DNA from: Escherichia phage vB_Eco_mar003J3
Sequence record: NC_048203.1
Length of the DNA: 64,000 nt
Strand: one strand, 5' to 3'
Numbering within the stretch: position 1 is the first letter of the stretch; each line of letters opens with the position of its first letter. The position numbers and the translations under genes are program-made. Below, in pieces: positions 4,308-56,007 of the stretch. The notes under the pieces are model-generated. The model searched no databases. It was given only the letters and a program-made list of their open reading frames with translations, and had not been told where the DNA came from.

Positions 4308-4357
4308 TTCGTAACCCTTTGCTACCCGTTTACCATGTCGGAATTATAAAGTGGTTA

Positions 4358-4386
4358 TTGACATTTTCGCCGCTTAGGTATATACT
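4358..4386 (+). promoter_or_regulatory. sigma70-like promoter
   Basis: TTGACA-17 bp-TATACT in the spacer between the two ligase ORFs. Confidence 0.45.
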
Positions 4387-4450
4387 ATTATCATTCAGTT
4401 GAGGGATAGAAAGTTATGGCGAGGGTAAGCAAAGTTAGTTAAAATTGTAG

Positions 4451-4479
4451 TTGCTAAATGCTTAAATACTTGTTATAAT
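4451..4479 (+). promoter_or_regulatory. T5-type sigma70 promoter
   Basis: TTGCTA-17 bp-TATAAT followed by ATTTATATAAATTGATAAGGAAG. Confidence 0.65.
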
Positions 4480-4509
4480 ATTTATATAAATTGATAAGGA
4501 AGAAATTTG

Positions 4510-5289
4510 ATGAAAATCGAAATTCCAACACAATGTCCCTCTTGTGGTTCTAAGCTAGATCTTGTCAACGGGCAATTATTCTGTAGGAATAAGTCCAACT
4601 GTCCAGCACAATCAAGTAAGTTAATCGAGAACTTCTGCACAAAAATGAAGTTAAAGGGCTTTGGCCCGAAAACTATTGAGAAGCTGGAACTGACCAAGAT
4701 CTCAGAACTGTTTTACCTGACCGAAGAAGATTTGGTCGGAGCTGTGGGTAGCAAGGTTGCCGCTAAGTTGATTAGCGAGTTAAATACTAAGGTTCGCGGA
4801 GACATTGACTTTGGTTCGGTTCTCGGTTCTTTAGGAATTCCTCTTATTGGAGAGGTTGCAGCAAAGAAACTGTCCCAAAATTGCACTAGCTTCCACGATG
4901 TGAAGGCTGACGGCAAGGCTGGAGAAAATTACAAAACCTGGCTAAATTCCCCACAAGGCAAGGATGTTATTGAATTACCCTGGAAATTCTCAACTGGTAT
5001 TCGAGGTACTAAAGCTGATATCATCATTACGGATGATTTAGTTGCCCAGCCAAATGGAATCACGATCTGTATTACCGGATCTTTGCAAGATTTTGCAAAT
5101 CGAACGGATGCAACAAACTATTTAGAAAGTCTAGGATATACGGTTAAGAAATCCGTTACCAAAGACGTCAAATACCTAATCTGTGAGGATGAATCAAAAC
5201 GTTCTTCCTCATCTTATAAGAAAGCCGAAACGAATGGGATAGAAATCCTGTCGATTAAAGAACTATTGGAGAAAAATAATAATGTCTAA
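4510..5289 (+). CDS. NAD-dependent DNA ligase, C-terminal (Zn-finger/HhH/BRCT) subunit
   Basis: CPSCGSKL...C...C zinc finger, helix-hairpin-helix region and C-terminal BRCT-like segment; ATG 4510 with AAGGAAG RBS. Confidence 0.8.
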   Translation: MKIEIPTQCPSCGSKLDLVNGQLFCRNKSNCPAQSSKLIENFCTKMKLKGFGPKTIEKLELTKISELFYLTEEDLVGAVGSKVAAKLISELNTKVRGDIDFGSVLGSLGIPLIGEVAAKKLSQNCTSFHDVKADGKAGENYKTWLNSPQGKDVIELPWKFSTGIRGTKADIIITDDLVAQPNGITICITGSLQDFANRTDATNYLESLGYTVKKSVTKDVKYLICEDESKRSSSSYKKAETNGIEILSIKELLEKNNNV

Positions 5290-6098: not shown

Positions 6099-7604
6099 GC
6101 ATTTAGAAGGCACGAAAGCGTGCAAAGGAGAATGACCTTGTTTAACGTGCAAGCTGTAGTGTTGAAGATGCTTCTCGCTTCTGAACAGAAGCAAATAGCA
6201 TTGGAAACATTCTCAAAACTGCATAAAGATCATTTTAATGACGCTTTCTCCTCAATTTACCAAGCCGTCCAGAATTATTATAAGAAATATAACGCAATGC
6301 CGTCCATTGACGCACTGATGCTTGAGGCCAATAGGAACGCCCGCCTTTCTCAAGCTCTTGTCGTCTTAGCTAACACTCAAATTCCAGAAGTGAGCATGGA
6401 ACAGGCACTTGAAGTCCTAGAAGCTGAATATACACAGGATCTATTCCTGAAACTTCTAGAAACAGACGTGCTTCAAGATTTAACAATGCTGGATCAGGGA
6501 GAAATTCTCAATCGAGTTGCCTCCCTTCACTTAAAATTAGAAGAGAAAGTAACGAATACTGGAAAGGTATTCAACGCAGACACAATGCGTATTTTCCAGA
6601 GAGAAGAAGATACCAAACTGAACTTGATCGCTCTTGGTATTTGTAATGAGTTCGACGCTCAAATTGGTTTAGCTCGCACAGAAACGTTACTGCTTGGTGG
6701 TTGGCGTGGTACTGGTAAATCCATTATCTGTTCAAACATACAGGTTCAGCAATATTTGAATGGGGATATTGCTCCATACTTCTCAATTGAGATGAAAGAA
6801 CATGAAGTATTTAGACGTAATCTAGCCATGTTAGCTGGCGTATCAGCACTAGCAATGCGTAATAATACTCTAGAAGGTGCAGCTCTGTTGAGATTAGCCA
6901 GAACTAGAGCTAGGATGTTTAACGGCGGTGAAGAGCTTTTCGATAACTTCGTTAAACAGTACACAATGGCTAAGATGAGTGATTTCTACGATATGGAAAG
7001 TAAGCTAATAGAAGGGTATGAGCTACATACTCCTATGATTATTGTTTATGACCCTGAACTGTCCATTACAACAGTTGACGTAGAATTAAATAAATTAGTT
7101 GCTAGATATGGTGATAAAGTTACAGTAGCTTTACTGGACTATATTAACCAAACCCGACTTCCAGACTCTAAAACCATTGATATGTATGACTGGAAAGAAC
7201 AGATGGTTGTTAGCTCGTCTTTCAAATCTATCTGCCAGAAACATAACGTGGCTGGTGTAGCCCCTTACCAGATCGATCAAGATGGTAGAACACGTATGTC
7301 AAAGGGGATTCTTGATTCCGCAGACATGGCTGCTAATCTTAATGCTGCAAAAGCTGATAATGGTCAAGGTGCTATTATGTTTGACTTCGTTAAGACCCGT
7401 TCTTCTGATAGCGTGAAGTTTATGCCTAAAATGAACTGGGAAACCCTACGGATGGATAACACTACCAACCTAGCAATGGAAGATATATCTCAAATGGAAG
7501 CTGAGTTCGTTATCCCTATTGAGAAGGATAAGCCGGCTCAATCTAAACGTGCTAAGAAAGACAAAGCTGAAAATTCAACAGGTGAACAGGCCAGCGATAT
7601 ATGA
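6081..7604 (+). CDS. DnaB-like replicative helicase
   Basis: Walker A GWRGTGKS and RecA-like core; listed ATG 6081 lies inside the terminator hairpin, so the true start is probably downstream (e.g. MTLFNVQ). Confidence 0.75.
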   Translation: MLLPLFAFRRHESVQRRMTLFNVQAVVLKMLLASEQKQIALETFSKLHKDHFNDAFSSIYQAVQNYYKKYNAMPSIDALMLEANRNARLSQALVVLANTQIPEVSMEQALEVLEAEYTQDLFLKLLETDVLQDLTMLDQGEILNRVASLHLKLEEKVTNTGKVFNADTMRIFQREEDTKLNLIALGICNEFDAQIGLARTETLLLGGWRGTGKSIICSNIQVQQYLNGDIAPYFSIEMKEHEVFRRNLAMLAGVSALAMRNNTLEGAALLRLARTRARMFNGGEELFDNFVKQYTMAKMSDFYDMESKLIEGYELHTPMIIVYDPELSITTVDVELNKLVARYGDKVTVALLDYINQTRLPDSKTIDMYDWKEQMVVSSSFKSICQKHNVAGVAPYQIDQDGRTRMSKGILDSADMAANLNAAKADNGQGAIMFDFVKTRSSDSVKFMPKMNWETLRMDNTTNLAMEDISQMEAEFVIPIEKDKPAQSKRAKKDKAENSTGEQASDI

Positions 7605-38431: not shown

Positions 38432-39199
38432 TTAGGTTCCTTGATTAACCTTGATTTTATATCTAGAGTGAATCAGGTCTCTTGCAGCTTTTGCGATTGC
38501 TTCCCCAATAAGTTTTTGAGGGTTTCGAGCGCCAGGGTAAGGTCGTAGAGAAAGTCTTCGATATGTAGAAACTGCGGGGTTGAACACAGAGTAAGGACGA
38601 ACCATATAGTTATACGTCACATTCAGCTCTGGAGCACCTTTACTAGTTTCTGCATCACGTAACATAACATCTTTAATCTTTAAGGAGTTAGCAAAGCGAC
38701 CAGTTCTGAACTTCAATGGTGCCCCTGCTTTTTTCATATCCTTGATTAAGTATTCCTTAGCTACTATCTCAAGAATAGCACGCATGTTACTATTTGATAC
38801 GAAACGACCGGAAGCACCTGTTACTGCACCTGAATAGCCATCTTCAGTATCTCTAGGATCTCCAAAGTTTACCTGAACTCTACCGGTAGAACGTTTTTTA
38901 CCAACAGCAGAACGTTTACCTGCGGTTGCTTGAATTAAATTCTCTAGAGCGCCTAAATCACCAGAAAGATCTAAGTTAGAAGAAACAGCCTTCAGTATAG
39001 ATGCTGTCCTAACATTTAATAAGTCTTGTGATACTGGTTTTGAGAATTTGAAAGATACCTGTGCAACTGTGCCATCTCTTGTAGGATCCTTCAAACCAGT
39101 CTCAACTGTATATACAACAGTATTCTTATTATTCTCAGATCGTCCTGCAGTATCTAGCTGCTCTTTAATAATTTGTCTAGCTAGATCAGAAAGAGCCAT
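38432..39199 (-). CDS. tail completion protein (p143-like)
   Basis: 255 aa; synteny. Confidence 0.5.
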   Translation of the reverse strand: MALSDLARQIIKEQLDTAGRSENNKNTVVYTVETGLKDPTRDGTVAQVSFKFSKPVSQDLLNVRTASILKAVSSNLDLSGDLGALENLIQATAGKRSAVGKKRSTGRVQVNFGDPRDTEDGYSGAVTGASGRFVSNSNMRAILEIVAKEYLIKDMKKAGAPLKFRTGRFANSLKIKDVMLRDAETSKGAPELNVTYNYMVRPYSVFNPAVSTYRRLSLRPYPGARNPQKLIGEAIAKAARDLIHSRYKIKVNQGT

Positions 39200-39711
39200 T
39201 ACACTCTCCTATAGACTTCGATGATTGTACGAATATGTTCTGGAATACCAGACTTAGTATTGTTAAACGTAACTGTCTCACCACCAATAGTCTTGGCTTG
39301 ACGATAATCTTGCTTATGCCAGTGATCTACTAACAGACATGCTGCCAGTTTAAGATCTTCAGGCATTGGATTGAAACCACCTTGAGTATACTCTACATCC
39401 ATATATCCTTCAGGAGGATTAAACTTAAGGAGGATAACACCATCAGGATACAGTTTAAACTGTTCCGTATCTATTTCATTCTCGTTAATAGTCATCTTTG
39501 TAATAGATGTGGCTGAAGGAGAACTCAGGAAATATTTCCTACGGCTAGGTTTTGTGGTGATTAATTGATCTACCGCATCTGCATCATCCATACCTAGAAG
39601 GCTTGTAATCAGCGTATTGGCAGCTTTAATCATCATCTCAACCTGAGTTTCCATATCAGGACGTTTTAAATTCCCATATAGTTTATAATCTTCAACAGTG
39701 ATGATTTGCAT
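39199..39711 (-). CDS. head completion / connector protein (p144-like)
   Basis: 170 aa; follows the capsid gene terminator. Confidence 0.5.
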   Translation of the reverse strand: MQIITVEDYKLYGNLKRPDMETQVEMMIKAANTLITSLLGMDDADAVDQLITTKPSRRKYFLSSPSATSITKMTINENEIDTEQFKLYPDGVILLKFNPPEGYMDVEYTQGGFNPMPEDLKLAACLLVDHWHKQDYRQAKTIGGETVTFNNTKSGIPEHIRTIIEVYRRV

Positions 39712-50713: not shown

Positions 50714-52378
50714 TTAGGCAAAGAATTTGCCATTTTTGAAATCAATCAAGGTACGTTGACCGTTTGCATATGTAATTAAATGCGTTTGCGTCCAGCTTGA
50801 CGCGCCAACGTTGTAACCCATATCGAGACTACCAGCAACGCCAGCGGTATAAACGCCGCCGTATATACTAGCCGTGTGAGTGTGGCCCGTGTTGAGGCGT
50901 CCTAACTTTTTAAACTGTTTAGGATTGCCCCGACTGCCGTTAATGCCGTTGTGACCATGTACACCGCATTCAATTCCTGCAATCTTGAAAGATTGGTCAG
51001 TAGTCAGGAAAATAGCGTTAAATTCGCAACCTGCAACGTTTCTAAGCGCATAATCCAATACGTTAAAGGTATCATCTTGTTTTGCAATAGCCGCATAAAT
51101 CGCAGCGTTTAGGCTGTGATACAGTTCGGCGTTTGCGGGGTCGTCTTTAATGTTAGCGTTACGATCATCAAGCCAACGGGATAACGCCAAATCATGATTG
51201 GATTCCACGATGATTGTTTGAGAAAAATCGCGCTCCATTGACTCCAACACGCGACCGGTATCAATGAGATCGTCAATAACTTTATCACGTCCGGCGGCGT
51301 ATTGTTTCGCAAGGAATACACCACTTGCGCGGTTGTGATGGTTACGCGATGTAAAATCATGCACATCATGAATAAACTGATATTTCGGTTTAAGAATATC
51401 AAGCAAGCTATTTTCGCCCACCCATGATGCAACGGCGCATTCATCATCTAATTTTTCGGCGTGAATATCGCCATATTGCAAGCCTAGAACATGATCGGAC
51501 GTTTCAAAACATCCGGTAGGCATAGCGCAAATATTCAAATCATAAAACATTCCGCTTTCATCCATTGTTTCAAGCTGGCGAACAAAAAATTCGCCGTCGT
51601 CGTCAAATTCTACCAACAAAGCGCCGTAATTATGCAGCGCCTCAGCTTTTTGACCTGCTTTCTGCTGAATATAGTTTTTAAGTGTAGCCGTTCCGGTGGA
51701 GTACATACGGCGCACTACTTCACCTTTTAACGCTGGCACACTTTCAGCGGTAATTTTAGCGTGACCAATTGCCAGACCTTCAATATTTAAAGCCGTGGCG
51801 GTTTCTGCGAATCCTGAAAGCGGATAGTCTGCCGTTGGTAACACGTTAATTTCAGCCATGAAAGCAAAACGGCGATTATTTAAAAATACGTTTTTCTCGC
51901 AAATATATTTATTAAATGCGGGATCGTATTTAATGCCTTCGTTACCTTCTCCATTCTGGAAGCCGTTTTTATTGTAAATGAATTTACTAACCAGCAATTC
52001 ACCGCCGATATATTCAGCGAATTGCTCAAGCACTTTCAAAAAGTTTTTATGTGGGAAAGTATTATTTTGAATCGACGTTAGAATAAAACGGCGACCGGAT
52101 TTAACTTCCCACTGTTCCACGGTACTAGAAACAATCCCCGCCGCTTCTGGGCGATCATCATTTTTAATCGCCTTTTCAGCTTTTGCCGCTTTCGGTTTCG
52201 CTGGCTTATTTGCTTCCAGCCAGTCACAAATTGCGGTCGAATGTTTCGGCGTGTCATAAACAGCTTTTGAAATATCGTCACAAACTTCCAATTTAGTAGC
52301 GCGTAAACGCTTGCCATAGAAATTAAAATCAGCGGCAAGTTTAGTGATCTGGGACTGTTTTTCTGCGGAAATATTCAT
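50714..52378 (-). CDS. A1: pre-early A1-like metallophosphoesterase
   Basis: 554 aa; calcineurin-like motifs GDIH, HDVHDF, ESNHD, GVHGHNG, GHTH; adjacent to dmp as in T5. Confidence 0.8.
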   Translation of the reverse strand: MNISAEKQSQITKLAADFNFYGKRLRATKLEVCDDISKAVYDTPKHSTAICDWLEANKPAKPKAAKAEKAIKNDDRPEAAGIVSSTVEQWEVKSGRRFILTSIQNNTFPHKNFLKVLEQFAEYIGGELLVSKFIYNKNGFQNGEGNEGIKYDPAFNKYICEKNVFLNNRRFAFMAEINVLPTADYPLSGFAETATALNIEGLAIGHAKITAESVPALKGEVVRRMYSTGTATLKNYIQQKAGQKAEALHNYGALLVEFDDDGEFFVRQLETMDESGMFYDLNICAMPTGCFETSDHVLGLQYGDIHAEKLDDECAVASWVGENSLLDILKPKYQFIHDVHDFTSRNHHNRASGVFLAKQYAAGRDKVIDDLIDTGRVLESMERDFSQTIIVESNHDLALSRWLDDRNANIKDDPANAELYHSLNAAIYAAIAKQDDTFNVLDYALRNVAGCEFNAIFLTTDQSFKIAGIECGVHGHNGINGSRGNPKQFKKLGRLNTGHTHTASIYGGVYTAGVAGSLDMGYNVGASSWTQTHLITYANGQRTLIDFKNGKFFA

Positions 52379-52731: not shown

Positions 52732-53166
52732 TTATTCGCCTGCGGCCTGTTTTACTTCATCGACAACGCCTAACAATTGCGCCATGGCTTCCAGCGTTTC
52801 CAGTTTTGCACTTTCCAAACTTGCCAGATCGTCGGCGTCTTTGATAATGCCTGAATCAATGGCGTGTTTAGCGATAACGCGCACATAGTGAGCTTTACGG
52901 ATTGAGCTACCGCCGCCAACTTTGCGCGGCTTGTCGCTTTTCTGGTAGGCTTTTGCACTGGTCAATTTAGAACGTACAGAGACAGGGGAAGCCGCGCCAA
53001 CGGCGGCGGCGATTTCTTTTAAGCCGTCACTGTTAGCAAATTCAACGCCATTTTTTTCGATCATTTCAGAATACAAAGAGACAGCTTTCTGCGTGTTTTC
53101 TTCATTCCAAGAGAATTTTGCGGCTTTTTCGGTTTTAACGTTAGACATAGTAAATACTCCGTTCAA
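52732..53166 (-). CDS. pre-early A2-like protein (putative)
   Basis: 144-aa ORF upstream of the A1-like gene, size close to the ~15 kDa I recall for T5 A2; assignment by synteny only. Confidence 0.45.
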   Translation of the reverse strand: MNGVFTMSNVKTEKAAKFSWNEENTQKAVSLYSEMIEKNGVEFANSDGLKEIAAAVGAASPVSVRSKLTSAKAYQKSDKPRKVGGGSSIRKAHYVRVIAKHAIDSGIIKDADDLASLESAKLETLEAMAQLLGVVDEVKQAAGE

Positions 53167-53247
53167 TTATTAATTAAGGGATTATGATTAACTAATGTTA
53201 ATCGTTATATTGCCCATATTTCAGGGCAATATAAAAGTAACACTAAT

Positions 53248-53499
53248 TTATGCTATGGCTTGCCATTTATCATCTTTCTGAATGACCTTTACAACGTCGC
53301 CAGATTTAACACGGACGGTATAAATCGGCTTGCCGTGGTTACTGCGTTCCGTTTCCGCGTAGACCGCTTCAATCTTATCAAAGGGATCAAGCGCCGCACC
53401 TTTAATACGTTCGGCTTTTCCGGTTAATTCATCCGTTTTAGTTACAAAAGGAATGAATACAGATTGACCTACTTTCGGCGCGGTAATAACGTTTTGCAT
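53248..53499 (-). CDS. hypothetical pre-early protein
   Basis: 83-aa ORF with GGAG RBS. Confidence 0.5.
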   Translation of the reverse strand: MQNVITAPKVGQSVFIPFVTKTDELTGKAERIKGAALDPFDKIEAVYAETERSNHGKPIYTVRVKSGDVVKVIQKDDKWQAIA

Positions 53500-53632
53500 T
53501 TTTAATACTCCGGTTTATTGGGGATTATTCCACAATAGCGCCTCGATACTTTGAAACGCTATTAGATTATAATCCGCTAGGAGTTAGCCTAAACATTACC
53601 GTTATCCAAATTGTTAAAGAGCAGTTACTACG

Positions 53633-53655
53633 GGGAACATCTTAAAACCTATCGG
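53633..53655. repeat. 23-bp inverted repeat, left arm
   Basis: GGGAACATCTTAAAACCTATCGG; reverse complement of 53907-53929 with one mismatch. Confidence 0.85.
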
Positions 53656-53663
53656 CTAGCGTG

Positions 53664-53873
53664 TCAAGCGTTTTTTAAACTTTTTTCGATTTGATGGGAG
53701 TTATATAAATCAATCATTATATTACGCCACACCATTTCCAGCCCTTGTTGCTTGCCTTTCTTGTATTGCTTGAATCTGTATTTTACAGATCGTTGCGCTA
53801 CTGTCAACAAATTTTTTGTTCTGCTATCAAGCGACTTGATAGGCTTGCCAGTGATCAAAAGCGTTTGTTTCAT
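53664..53873 (-). CDS. hypothetical small basic protein
   Basis: 69 aa, Lys/Arg-rich, RBS AAGGAA; ORF sits exactly between the two arms of the 23-bp inverted repeat. Confidence 0.45.
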   Translation of the reverse strand: MKQTLLITGKPIKSLDSRTKNLLTVAQRSVKYRFKQYKKGKQQGLEMVWRNIMIDLYNSHQIEKSLKNA

Positions 53874-53906
53874 ATCGTCGATTCCTTATAATATCTAAGT
53901 TTACCG

Positions 53907-53929
53907 CCGATAGGCTTTAAGATGTTCCC
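53907..53929. repeat. 23-bp inverted repeat, right arm
   Basis: CCGATAGGCTTTAAGATGTTCCC. Confidence 0.85.
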
Positions 53930-54028
53930 TAATTTTTAAAGAGCATGGCAGGGTTTTGAAAGGTCAAACAGACTGTCAATCGCTGTTATCCCCGCCGTGT
54001 AGTTCGTCATTGCCGCCCTACGTGATAA

Positions 54029-54057
54029 ATAATAGGAGAATACCGAGAAGGGCGCAA
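54029..54057 (-). promoter_or_regulatory. candidate sigma70 promoter for the - strand pre-early operon
   Basis: On - strand TTGCGC-17 bp-TATTAT about 150 nt upstream of ORF 53873; weak call. Confidence 0.3.
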
Positions 54058-54280
54058 GCGTATTTTTGTAAAGAAACGTAAAGAAAACCACTACTCGCAA
54101 ACGTCCAGCGGCGCATTAAATTTAATGAAACGGGCGCGCGAATAACACCAAAACAACCATTTTAGCAAGTAATTTTTTCATTTATATCTGCTCTAGGGTA
54201 CTTGACAAAATCTAAAATCCTCGTGGTGAGGTTTTCTCGGTGTACCCCTTATGATTGCCTATCTTTTCCTTTGAGGCGCT

Positions 54281-54307
54281 TAGAATGCGTTACAGAGCGT
54301 TTTAGAC
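54281..54307. repeat. 27-bp direct repeat, copy 1
   Basis: TTAGAATGCGTTACAGAGCGTTTTAGA, identical at 57704-57730. Confidence 0.85.
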
Positions 54308-54521
54308 CCTGTTAATAACTTATACAAAAAGCAAAAATGAAATTTAATGAGTTATCCACTTGATTTTTCAAAAAAGTATTTTCTGCTGTTATTTTTCATT
54401 GACAAATAAGTCTGGACGTGTATCAGATCGTTAGCAGACTAATAATCGCTAGGATGATAATCACGCTGGTGGATTGTAACGGCTGAAATCATTAGCAGAC
54501 TATTAATCAAGGAAAATCCTA

Positions 54522-54552
54522 TTAGCCAACTAACTATTTCATAATATATAAT
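54522..54552 (+). promoter_or_regulatory. T5-type promoter (weak -35)
   Basis: TATAAT followed by ATACATATAAATTAATGAGAAAT conserved downstream box; about 430 nt upstream of ORF 54982. Confidence 0.45.
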
Positions 54553-54636
54553 ATACATATAAATTAATGAGAAATAATAAATATGAGAAACTATCGGGCT
54601 AAGTGAGAACCACTATCATTTAACTTATACCCAAAG

Positions 54637-54645
54637 TTATCCACA
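54637..54645 (+). promoter_or_regulatory. DnaA box (TTATCCACA)
   Basis: Exact match to the consensus 9-mer. Confidence 0.5.
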
Positions 54646-54685
54646 GCACAAAATAACTTGACGCAATAGGCGACGTTTTGGCGAC

Positions 54686-54694
54686 TTATCCACA
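54686..54694 (+). promoter_or_regulatory. DnaA box (TTATCCACA)
   Basis: Exact match to the consensus 9-mer; part of inverted repeat A. Confidence 0.5.
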
Positions 54695-54714
54695 GACTTA
54701 TATACAGGTTATCC

Positions 54715-54734
54715 TACTGTATAAATATACAGGG
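54715..54734. promoter_or_regulatory. LexA/SOS-box-like palindrome
   Basis: TACTGTATAAATATACAGGG fits CTGT-N8-ACAG; part of inverted repeat A. Confidence 0.4.
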
Positions 54735-54981
54735 TAGAATGGTAGCAGTAACAACCGCAATCAAATTTAAGCGGCCTAGAACGCGCTACACGGCGTTTTC
54801 TCACTGCTGCCCTTATTATAATAAAGCCTTGTGTACACTTACAGAGTGCTAGAAATAGAAAACGCGCGGATATCATAAAAACAGGCAGTAAGCAAGGAAT
54901 AAAAAACCTTTTCTTTTTCCTTGCCCCTAGCGAACAAATATCTATATCATTCACTCACCGATTAACGAGGGAGACAAAGAA

Positions 54982-56007
54982 ATGTCTACTGTAAGAATTG
55001 CAGTACCAGCAAACGCCACTATTATTAAGGGTAGTTTGCGCAACCTGCTAGACGGATCAAGTCTAGCAAGCCTACAGCTAGACGGATCAAGTCTAGCAAG
55101 CCTACAACATACGGCGGCAATGGTTGAAAAGATTCACGATGAAATTTTAGATAATAATGATACTCATTATTGTTTAAGTGATTTCACACAATTACTAGAC
55201 CCTACCCGCGTTCTAGTGCTTTACAACCGTGACTATCACATCATGCGAAATCAGCGGGGAAGAGATATTGATTTTATCATTGTAGGTCACGACGAAAAAA
55301 GCTATATTGCCCGTGGTTACAATGTACAAGAAAAAGAAATGGTTTTCGCTACTCGCGTAAATGGTATTAATTCCAGCGATGTAGAAGATTTACTATCTAG
55401 TATTTGTGGCGAATTGACAAGCGCCATTAAACGTGCTGATAGTTACGCAATCGAAACAACTGGCGTATTGTGTTTTGGACGCGCTAGAGGTAACATGTTG
55501 ATCCCTAACGATTATTTAGAGTATGGGAATGAATCAAACGTTGCAAACGCTGGATTTACACTTTTACCGCTTGACAATGTAACAAAACAGGCTGTACAAT
55601 CTCAAACTTCAAGCGCAAATGCGCAAACTACTGAAAATAAAGGAAATATTATGTCTAAAGTATCTTCTATCGTTGCTGCTAATAAATCCGCCGTTGTAAA
55701 CGCTGCTAAACTGGAAGTGGGTAAAATTGCACTGACTCAAGTCACAAAAGTAGCGGCGAAAAAAGCACCGTTTATGATTAAAGGGTATATTGATACGCCG
55801 ATTGGTCGTGTAGTGATCGCTAACCTGCTGAGTGTAGCGGTTGACCAGTACGCCCCGACTAATGCGAAAGCTAAAGCGGTAGCAGGCGCGGCAATGGAAG
55901 CGGCAATGTTGGAAATGGTACAAAGTTTCAATATTGCTGAAATGATCGATGAAATGGTAAAAGGTATTGACATTTCAACCTTTACCCAAAATGCTGAAAG
56001 CGAGTAA
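54982..56007 (+). CDS. hypothetical protein (341 aa) with internal 10-aa tandem duplication
   Basis: RBS GAGGGAG; N-terminal LDGSSLASLQ x2; possible internal start MSKVSSIV after AAAGGAAA. Confidence 0.6.
   Translation: MSTVRIAVPANATIIKGSLRNLLDGSSLASLQLDGSSLASLQHTAAMVEKIHDEILDNNDTHYCLSDFTQLLDPTRVLVLYNRDYHIMRNQRGRDIDFIIVGHDEKSYIARGYNVQEKEMVFATRVNGINSSDVEDLLSSICGELTSAIKRADSYAIETTGVLCFGRARGNMLIPNDYLEYGNESNVANAGFTLLPLDNVTKQAVQSQTSSANAQTTENKGNIMSKVSSIVAANKSAVVNAAKLEVGKIALTQVTKVAAKKAPFMIKGYIDTPIGRVVIANLLSVAVDQYAPTNAKAKAVAGAAMEAAMLEMVQSFNIAEMIDEMVKGIDISTFTQNAESE
55048..55107. repeat. 30-bp tandem duplication, two copies
   Basis: CTAGACGGATCAAGTCTAGCAAGCCTACAG / ...ACAA, one mismatch. Confidence 0.9.

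Follow-up and report, generated by a model that had tools for sequence, protein, structure and literature searches.

In the 64,000-nt stretch of Escherichia phage vB_Eco_mar003J3 (NC_048203.1) analyzed here, which we call the window, an inverted repeat encloses the first gene of the leftward pre-early operon. The source is a T5-like phage, and the repeat sits in the pre-early A1/A2, first-step-transfer region. Based on its pairing pattern and on the elements that accompany it, we propose that the repeat encodes an RNA element built like the control region of the host ribosomal RNA (rrn) operons, namely an rrn-like antitermination leader coupled to a leader-trailer helix, probably a ribonuclease III (RNase III) site, around the first pre-early cistron or cistrons. 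This reading is given a probability of about 0.6. In the direction of transcription the module consists of a hairpin, a boxA, the leader strand (5' arm), the cistron or cistrons, a promoter -35 hexamer, the trailer strand (3' arm, holding the -10 hexamer) and a boxA (Table 1). The repeat and the promoters were known before. What is new here is the pairing in the sense RNA, the adjacency of the arms to boxA, the overlap of the 3' arm with a promoter, and a regulatory frame that is independent of the enclosed gene, or cargo.

The preliminary description of this locus, made from the letters of the window, had reported 23-bp inverted repeats with one mismatch. The repeat is real and so is the mismatch, and the length is corrected to 24 nt. 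The two arms are 96% complementary and lie 249 nt apart. At up to 3 mismatches the arm motif occurs at these two sites alone in the window, and it had no match in 100 dinucleotide-preserving shuffles. It was also stated that the repeats flank a Lys/Arg-rich open reading frame (ORF) of 69 aa and nothing else. This ORF is indeed the sole one of at least 60 aa between the arms, but a promoter corresponding to P-H22 of T5 lies inside it and another corresponding to P-D/E20 overlaps the left arm. Since the ORF is on the minus strand, the right arm in window coordinates is the 5' arm in the mRNA. The single mismatch reads as A·C on the plus strand and as G·U on the minus (sense) strand. Annotation of the repeat in T5, where it surrounds T5.008 with a 24-nt core extendable to 39 nt, goes back about twenty years. 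The record AY587007 lists "inverted repeat A" at 4682-4706 and "A'" at 4950-4974, and in the Davison preprint (10.1101/866236) the pair, named IRA/IRA', belongs to "Repeat Region 1" and counts as conserved, no function being assigned to it. To both sources it is a DNA repeat of an "untranslated" region; unlike the present reading, they are silent on boxA, on RNA pairing and on the overlap with P-D/E20. Relatives' loci were drawn from IMG/VR, metagenomes and GenBank phages. The arms were found in every relative examined, amounting to at least 44 distinct haplotypes from T5, Epseptimavirus, DT57C/Gostya9, Klebsiella Sugarlandvirus and My1-like phages.

The case for pairing comes mainly from an alignment of 36 distinct T5/Epseptima-type modules (A3). 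The 24 pairs of the helix are formed in 99.9% of the 864 cells of the alignment, as compared with 28-43% when the partners are slid by 1-3 columns, and none of 500 shuffles scored as high in covariation as the observed alignment. On the sense strand the cells comprise 823 Watson-Crick pairs, 40 G·U pairs and 1 mismatch. The same 40 G·U cells are A·C mismatches on the opposite strand. Polymorphic columns outside the arms number 32 for C/T versus 52 for A/G; as C/T columns are not in excess there, a strand-biased C-to-T mutation is excluded as the cause of the G·U surplus. When the DT57C group was added, the cells of G·U type and of A·C type were 47 and 5, respectively. At pair 4/21, U-A is replaced by A-U in relatives, which is a compensatory change. 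Pair 6/19 runs through the series C-G, U-G and U-A. At pair 9/16 in DT57C, C-G has become U-A; the -10 hexamer now reads TAAAAT, and the 5' arm has changed in step from ATCTT to ATTTT. In one locus (L026) each arm has gained 1 nt, and the two insertions match.

The same geometry is seen with other arm sequences. Klebsiella Sugarlandviruses have a different arm sequence that forms a helix of 14+14 bp with a 1-nt bulge (TTGGGATTCTATAAAAAGCGTTATCGGC / GCCGATAACGCTTTATTATAGAATCTCAA). A My1-like phage (L078, a contig of 122,024 bp, positions 829-1630) contains two bracketed units in succession. Its helix a (841-872 / 1105-1136, 32 bp) is formed around a 65-aa ORF and its helix b (1160-1175 / 1503-1518, 16 bp) around a 46-aa DUF7416 homolog plus a 53-aa ORF, and each 3' arm lies inside a promoter-like element. 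The helices were located with an ungapped helix finder, as duplex prediction on long flanks over-extended the duplexes. Their lengths are 24 bp in the window, 28-39 bp in T5, 28 bp in the Klebsiella phages and 32 bp in My1-like helix a. In folding calculations the helix is present in both the minimum free energy and the centroid structures of the window (z = -3.7), T5 (z = -8.5) and Klebsiella phage Shiner (z = -4.6). RNAalifold, run without bias, returned the same helix in the consensus and left boxA unpaired. The preliminary description had raised the possibility of a long-range RNA stem enclosing the whole cistron; the folds, the near-complete pairing, the compensatory changes and the preference for G·U over A·C support such a stem in the sense RNA. 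Just inside the helix, columns 100-116 of A3 (from the 5' arm to the Shine-Dalgarno sequence) hold a TA-dinucleotide tract of phage-dependent length, up to TATTATATATATATATAAGG in L082, which appears in the consensus fold as a small hairpin over the Shine-Dalgarno region.

Then, what stands next to the arms? The gamma-proteobacterial boxA consensus is GYTCTTTAANA (PMC5725501), and two exact matches to it, boxA#1 and boxA#2, flank the arms of the window as a direct repeat. Between this boxA repeat and the arms there are 3 nt on one side and 9-15 nt on the other. The pattern GCTCTTTAAMAA has 2 matches in the 64 kb, as opposed to an expected 0.04, both on the sense strand and both beside the arms. 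In E. coli rrnH the same pattern is found exactly twice, as GCTCTTTAACAA in the leader and as GCTCTTTAAAAA in the 16S-23S spacer. The 12-nt core of boxA#1 is identical to the spacer boxA of rrnH, and the first 16 nt of boxA#2 are identical to its leader boxA, TGCTCTTTAACAATTT. Among the aligned relatives boxA#1 is invariant (36/36). The Klebsiella, My1-like and DT57C lineages have it too; in these the ORFs share 37-47% identity or have been replaced. The second copy occurs in Epseptimavirus-type, Klebsiella and My1-like phages. The My1-like L078 has three copies (at about 829, 1133 and 1613), so that every 5' arm is preceded and every 3' arm followed by one. From boxA to the leader strand there are 0-3 nt in the types of the window, T5 and Klebsiella, at most 14 nt at My1-like helix b, and 5 nt in rrnH. 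Both copies in the window are untranslated, on the sense strand and promoter-proximal, the promoter assigned to boxA#1 being a candidate; boxA#2 falls at about +10 to +21 of a transcript begun at the P-D/E20-type promoter. By sequence match and conservation, the two copies are candidate rrn-type NusB/NusE elements.

A third match to the boxA consensus, at 39160-39170 (+) of the window (GCTCTTTAATA), lies on the strand opposite to the ORFs 38432..39199 and 39199..39711 (both minus). As chance alone would give 0.75 matches, it is probably fortuitous. A boxA in a phage is not unusual as such, given that a 17-nt string of the phage type, GCTCTTTAAMAATTTGG, was found in more than 120 viral contigs of IMG/VR (including loci L105-L184), many of them about 40 kb long. 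These contigs may represent lambdoid nut sites of temperate phages or carry-over of host rrn sequence. A scan of 53200-55100 with Rfam returned only a chance-level match (E = 0.94).

Directly 5' of boxA#1 a stem-loop is found in all cases, in the position that boxB takes in rrn. Most relatives have a compact form, CGGCGG-GAAGTTTA-CCGCCG. The window differs from all relatives by a 36-nt insertion in the loop (53954-53989, minus strand; GATAACAGCGATTGACAGTCTGTTTGACCTTTCAAAAC), with the closing stem GGCGGGG/CCCTGCC retained. In L008 and L019 the hairpin CGGCGGGAAGTTTACCGCCG (A3 columns 27-47) is swapped for its exact reverse complement, CGGCGGTAAACTTCCCGCCG, keeping the stem and inverting the loop. 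About 100 nt of non-coding sequence 5' of boxA#1 (…CTTTACAAAAATA.GGTTGCG…TATTATTTATCTCGTAGGGCGGCAATGACGAACTACACGG…) are nearly identical in T5, the window and Klebsiella Sugarlandviruses. This block (window 53947-54100, minus strand; L037 1140-1250; L001 4990-5100) holds small stems and the candidate promoter TTGCGC-17-TATTAT, and adjoins ORFs that are merely 37-47% identical.

The 3' arm has a second role at the DNA level. The -35 hexamer of the P-D/E20-type promoter lies between the cargo stop codon and the left arm, and the arm itself makes up the spacer, the -10 hexamer and the discriminator. In AY692264 the mapped promoter P-D/E20 is placed at 4664..4738(-), precisely over the position homologous to the 3' arm. 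This promoter, which is conserved in all lineages, drives the T5.007 homolog, A2, A1 and the downstream genes. The 5' arm lies in no ORF and in no predicted promoter, yet 17 of the 24 pairs are invariant across the 36 distinct sequences. A reverse-orientation promoter in the 5' arm was considered and rejected, as the -35 position reads CTAAGT or ATAAGT, with 2/6 matches. The internal promoter of the cargo ORF corresponds to P-H22, which AY692264 puts inside T5.008. T5/Epseptima-type relatives preserve both of its hexamers, which fall on synonymous codon positions (Leu TTG, Thr ACA, Val GTA), indicating that the ORF is under a dual coding and promoter constraint. The divergent cargo allele of the GSW6/Klebsiella type has no P-H22-type promoter. 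Farther upstream, the block TTGCGC-17-TATTAT is conserved from T5 to the Klebsiella phages and would start a transcript that contains the hairpin, boxA#1 and both arms. In RNA-seq data from phage Bas33 (PMC13250531), the region homologous to the cargo gene is transcribed, with a value of 1232 versus 12199 for the next gene downstream, a step of about 10-fold that fits a strong promoter at the 3' arm.

The cargo of the window belongs to the Pfam family DUF7416 (135 bits against a gathering cutoff of 27, residues 1-69). Its PHROG falls in the function-unknown class, its 60 database clusters all come from T5-like phages, and its conserved motif is K-x-R-F/Y...Y-x-x-G-x-QQGL-x-M-x-W-x-N-x-M. The AlphaFold2 model is a two-helix hairpin with a predicted local distance difference test (pLDDT) value of 75. 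A profile search against PDB sequences gave no relatives, and Foldseek of the model against the PDB gave generic helical hairpins with a best E of 2.3. The protein has no meaningful relative in the PDB; across the Pfam, PDB profile and Foldseek searches no DNA-binding fold or family was detected. The sequence around the Shine-Dalgarno element, TATAAGGAATCG, is invariant in A3.

What lies between the arms varies widely. The window has one DUF7416 ORF in 249 nt. GSW6, with identical arms, has two ORFs in 410 nt, one of them a DUF7416 homolog of 39% identity, and L074, also with identical arms, has one allele of 42% identity. The window and L074 are essentially identical over the segment between boxA#1 and the ATG and over that beginning with the promoter, as compared with 67% identity inside. 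Phage chee24 and the Klebsiella phages have an additional ORF of 52-57 aa 5' of DUF7416; in DT57C, Gostya9, HK6 and HMD-P3 that other ORF stands alone and DUF7416 is missing. The additional small ORFs of the two-gene cassettes matched no Pfam family. The hairpin, boxA#1, the arms and the promoter are retained in all these phages whatever the cargo. Phages without the DUF7416 ORF keep the arms around another ORF, and the DUF7416 cargo is dispensable in nature. Recombination inside a regulatory frame that is itself conserved best explains the cassette-like variability seen in these sequences. The Vibrio Demerecviridae L097 and L098 were considered as an empty-site comparison and set aside. DUF7416 was not detected in them, and their T5.007 homolog (about 32% identical) lies in an unrelated context, amid early nucleotide-metabolism genes (ribonucleotide reductase, thyA, RNase H), which makes the comparison uninformative.

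In the rrn operons, boxA nucleates an antitermination complex of Nus factors and SuhB, and the boxA-anchored RNA has been proposed to hold the leader strand at the RNA exit channel in wait for the trailer; in the leader-trailer helix of 16S rRNA, which contains the RNase III site, more than 17 bp are critical (PMC10250234, PMC4807359). We propose that the phage module follows the same course. A transcript starting upstream would make, in turn, the hairpin, the rrn-type boxA, the 5' arm, the small cistron or cistrons and the 3' arm. The boxA would recruit NusB/NusE(S10) and then NusA, NusG and SuhB to RNA polymerase, giving fast, Rho-resistant transcription of the long untranslated leader and the operon. 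The leader strand, tethered through boxA, would be held near the RNA exit channel and would pair with the trailer on its emergence, closing a helix of 24-28 bp (39 bp in T5) around the first cistron or cistrons. Host RNase III would then cut the helix and part the small-gene mRNA, its ends still paired, from the A2/A1 message and the boxA-bound complex. In the window, Klebsiella and My1 types, the second boxA after the trailer would reload Nus factors. It would also stand at about +10 of the transcripts from the strong P-D/E20 promoter, whose spacer and -10 hexamer are the trailer. In T5-type phages, which have no second boxA, the helix would extend over boxA#1. The Nus binding, the antitermination, the tethered pairing, the RNase III cleavage and the upstream start site are steps that we infer. 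We found no literature linking boxA, Nus factors or RNase III to T5-like pre-early transcription, in a search that some key older T5 work lay outside. More tentatively, and with doubt outweighing confidence, the module may be taken as a miniature of the host rRNA-operon control architecture that heads the pre-early operon. It would recruit the rrn antitermination complex and have its first cistron excised by RNase III, and the fusion of trailer and promoter would give read-through and promoter-initiated transcripts a common boxA-headed 5' region.

Several observations weigh against this proposal. As 17 of the 24 pairs are invariant, the covariation is carried by few positions and its support is moderate. 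Counted by pair position, the T5/Epseptima clade has 9 of G·U type and 4 of A·C type, which is a modest wobble excess; A·C cases are found in the DT57C/Gostya9 lineage and in one metagenome contig of 1.4 kb. My1-like helix b is just 16 bp long and contains one C·A mismatch. Translation of the enclosed cistron could compete with the long-range pairing. P-D/E20 or P-H22 is probably the origin of most downstream transcripts, which would lack the helix, and the step in the Bas33 data indicates that helix-bearing read-through RNAs are a minority of the downstream transcripts. The 3' arm is constrained as promoter DNA as well, and its spacer, GCCGATAGGCTT, is conserved beyond the needs of pairing, which a protein operator fits too. 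T5-type phages lack boxA#2, and their helix reaches over boxA#1, with CGCTCTTT pairing with AAAGAGCG, a difference that a simple reloading of Nus factors leaves unexplained. This extended pairing suggests that in the T5 type boxA is sequestered once the trailer is made.

The pairing evidence applies equally to a helix that works without RNase III or Nus tethering, one that shields the ends of the small mRNA from RNase E and exonucleases or modulates translation, with boxA acting as a suhB-like translational repressor or being inert. Translational repression by Nus factors and boxA is documented for suhB (PMC5725501), the rrn leader-trailer helix matters independently of RNase III (PMC10250234), and the small conserved hairpin just inside the helix covers the Shine-Dalgarno region. 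On the other hand, boxA#1 is about 60 nt from the start codon, beyond the 50-nt window for suhB-type sites (PMC5725501). As for boxA#2, it heads the main operon transcript, a place where antitermination is a better fit than repression. A near-perfect duplex of 24-39 bp in E. coli is expected to be an RNase III substrate, which also counts against a helix that is left uncut, and we consider this explanation rather unlikely. Alternatively, the arms may be a pair of DNA operators bound by a regulator (pre-early A1, A2, DUF7416 or a host factor), with one copy in the core of P-D/E20 and the other 250-430 bp upstream, and with a bound oligomer looping the DNA to shut off or tune pre-early transcription. 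Filling the spacer and the -10 hexamer of a mapped strong promoter is a classic operator position, the spacers (GCCGATAGGCTT, My1-like GCGAATAGGCTT, Klebsiella GCCGATAACGCTT) are conserved more than pairing alone needs, pre-early shut-off is A1-dependent (record annotation; PMC13250531), and two identical sites would co-vary too. For a DNA site, however, both transitions are equivalent, whereas the one-sided changes keep G·U in the sense strand (40 cells versus 1, or 47 versus 5 with DT57C). Nor does such a model predict the matched 1-nt insertion in both arms or the placement of the 5' arm directly after boxA. My1-like helix a keeps the geometry with an unrelated sequence, and the cargo, itself dispensable, has no detected DNA-binding fold or family. 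An operator pair is accordingly judged improbable.

The preliminary description had also likened the arrangement to a miniature inverted-repeat cassette. On such a view the arms would be terminal inverted repeats of an element, a mobile or a recombination-driven gene cassette, that brought the small gene to this site. The layout does invite this view, with inverted repeats around a small ORF, a direct repeat just outside, and an interior that behaves as an exchangeable module, differing sharply between identical arms (67% identity inside between the window and L074, two ORFs in GSW6, another ORF in DT57C). But an empty-site comparison went against it, as all relatives carry the arms, including those without the ORF. 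The repeat is single-copy in the window, no transposase or recombinase is present, and the divergence of the arms between lineages follows the phage phylogeny. What might pass for a target duplication is boxA, a conserved functional motif whose spacing to the arms varies and of which T5-type phages have a copy on one side alone. Expression of A2/A1, moreover, needs a mapped promoter whose core is one of the arms. Ordinary homologous recombination in the conserved flanks explains the exchange of cargo, which leaves a mobile cassette very improbable indeed. The rrn-like antitermination leader with its leader-trailer helix is the favored reading.

Table 1. Features of the bracketed module and the adjoining pre-early genes in the window. 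Genes are transcribed in descending order of window coordinates.
Feature	Position	Strand	Remarks
Second candidate upstream promoter, TTGTCA-16-TATAAA	54181-54208	-	
Candidate upstream promoter, TTGCGC-17-TATTAT	54029..54057	-	putative; below promoter-scan threshold
Stem-loop	53947..53996	-	directly 5' of boxA#1; GGCGGGG ... CCCTGCC, enlarged loop
boxA#1	53930..53945 (core 53933-53944)	-	sense TGCTCTTTAAAAATTA, core GCTCTTTAAAAA; ends 3 nt before 5' arm
5' arm, leader strand	53906..53929	-	sense GGGAACATCTTAAAGCCTATCGGC; T5 "inverted repeat A'"
Shine-Dalgarno AAGGA of cargo	53883..53887	-	9 nt before ATG, just inside helix
69-aa ORF, T5.008 homolog	53664..53873	-	first gene of leftward pre-early operon
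Internal promoter, TTGACA-16-TAAAAT	53780..53807	-	T5 P-H22 counterpart; inside cargo ORF
Sigma-70 promoter, TTGACA-17-TAAGAT	53639..53667	-	T5 P-D/E20 counterpart
3' arm, trailer strand	53633..53656	-	sense GCCGATAGGTTTTAAGATGTTCCC; T5 "inverted repeat A"
boxA#2	53606..53623 (core 53611-53622)	-	sense TGCTCTTTAACAATTTGG, core GCTCTTTAACAA; begins 9 nt after 3' arm
T5.007 homolog	53248..53499	-	
A2	52732..53166	-	
Small membrane protein gene	between A2 and A1	-	
A1	50714..52378	-	

The closest match of the window is Salmonella phage vaffelhjerte (Epseptimavirus), with 95.7% identity over 1.6 kb. Upstream of the 69-aa ORF lies about 1 kb of non-coding DNA, past which a divergent T5.011 homolog begins. 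The annotation of the locus in GenBank is inconsistent between records. Three T5 records were compared, NC_005859 (RefSeq; L001), AY692264 (L099) and AY587007 (L100). P-D/E20 is given as 4338..4664 in RefSeq and as 4664..4738 in AY692264; the latter coordinates fit the sequence, whereas those of RefSeq miss TTGACA-17-TAAGAT and look garbled or wrong. T5.008 is called as a gene in two of the T5 records, and AY587007 calls none between the repeats. T5.009, a 35-aa ORF over the 5' arm, is called in RefSeq NC_005859 alone. It is an unlikely gene, as the 36-nt insertion of the window breaks its frame and it is left uncalled in AY587007 and AY692264. The cassette ORF of DT57C (L101, about 4427-4597, minus strand) carries no annotation.

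Two further repeats were noted in the neighborhood. A 39-nt direct repeat of 72% identity (window 53130-53168 / 53481-53519) covers the translation-initiation regions of A2 and the T5.007 homolog; its sense strand reads …GGAGTATT.A…ATG…AACGTTA…, and the ribosome-binding contexts of the two genes are alike. The T5 inverted repeat IRB/IRB' (AY587007) flanks the HNH endonuclease gene hegG (L001 5275-5311 / 6260-6296, 37 nt, 86% complementary) and has counterparts in the window at about 54202-54222 and 54295-54315. In phages without hegG the IRB/IRB' arms are about 80 nt apart, and one arm lies over the -35 hexamer of the second candidate upstream promoter. It is a second instance of an inverted-repeat arm overlapping a promoter.

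The proposal offers a concrete, testable mechanism for a T5 repeat that has been annotated for some two decades without an assigned function. If true, it would bring RNase III and the host's Nus/rrn antitermination machinery into the first minutes of T5 gene expression, and it would explain the conservation of "Repeat Region 1" by the first rrn-type leader-trailer helix found to operate on an mRNA. The module would then be a natural model of 300 nt for long-range co-transcriptional pairing promoted by a boxA complex, a process hard to study on the 1.5-kb rRNA. It would also reveal an unnoticed host dependency, in which nusB, nusE, suhB or rnc could be requirements, or vulnerabilities, for a group of phages in wide therapeutic and biocontrol use. 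A fixed frame of RNA and promoter elements with swapped small early genes would account for the mosaicism of the locus and could serve as an insulated expression module.

How does the module compare with known regulatory systems? The "mobile regulatory cassettes" of T4-type phages, or PeSLs, are units of promoter plus stem-loop that flank variable small ORFs. Like the present module, they place conserved regulatory sequences around exchangeable small early ORFs and give rise to a cassette-like mosaicism. PeSLs, however, are direct repeats that promote excision and shuffling, whereas the arms here are inverted, single-copy and pair in RNA. The early RNase III sites of T7 let the host enzyme cut a polycistronic early mRNA into messages with base-paired ends. 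They are local hairpins between genes, in contrast to strands that stand on either side of a cistron and are coupled to boxA. The nutL-N leader of lambda has a boxA, a boxB and an RNase III site 5' of N, the small basic first gene of an immediate-early operon. The phage module resembles it in having a promoter-proximal boxA, a hairpin and an RNase III-type duplex before a small basic first gene. It differs from lambda in that the hairpin precedes boxA, as in rrn, and in that the duplex is long-range and encloses the gene. The boxA of lambda, CGCTCTTA, deviates from the full rrn consensus that the boxA of the phage module matches. Between lambda N and DUF7416 no similarity was detectable in Pfam and PDB searches; N proteins are short and fast-evolving, and DUF7416 is dispensable.

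The likeness to the E. coli rrn operons goes further. In rrnH the leader boxA is followed after 5 nt by CAGACAATCTGTGTG, which forms the leader-trailer helix with its complement, CACACAGATTGTCTG, located right behind 16S. The order of boxB hairpin, boxA, leader strand, product, trailer strand and second boxA is the same in both systems, the two boxA cores of the phage are those of the spacer and leader copies of rrnH, and the phage helix exceeds the >17 bp reported as critical for the leader-trailer helix of 16S. There are also clear differences. The phage helix encloses one or two small protein cistrons (249-410 nt) and no rRNA, its trailer doubles as the core of a strong promoter, and T5-type variants lack the second boxA and have boxA#1 paired into the helix. 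Moreover, the module belongs to a virulent phage. Taken together, the comparison suggests that the phage module works like an rrn element and is not a member of the rrn family.

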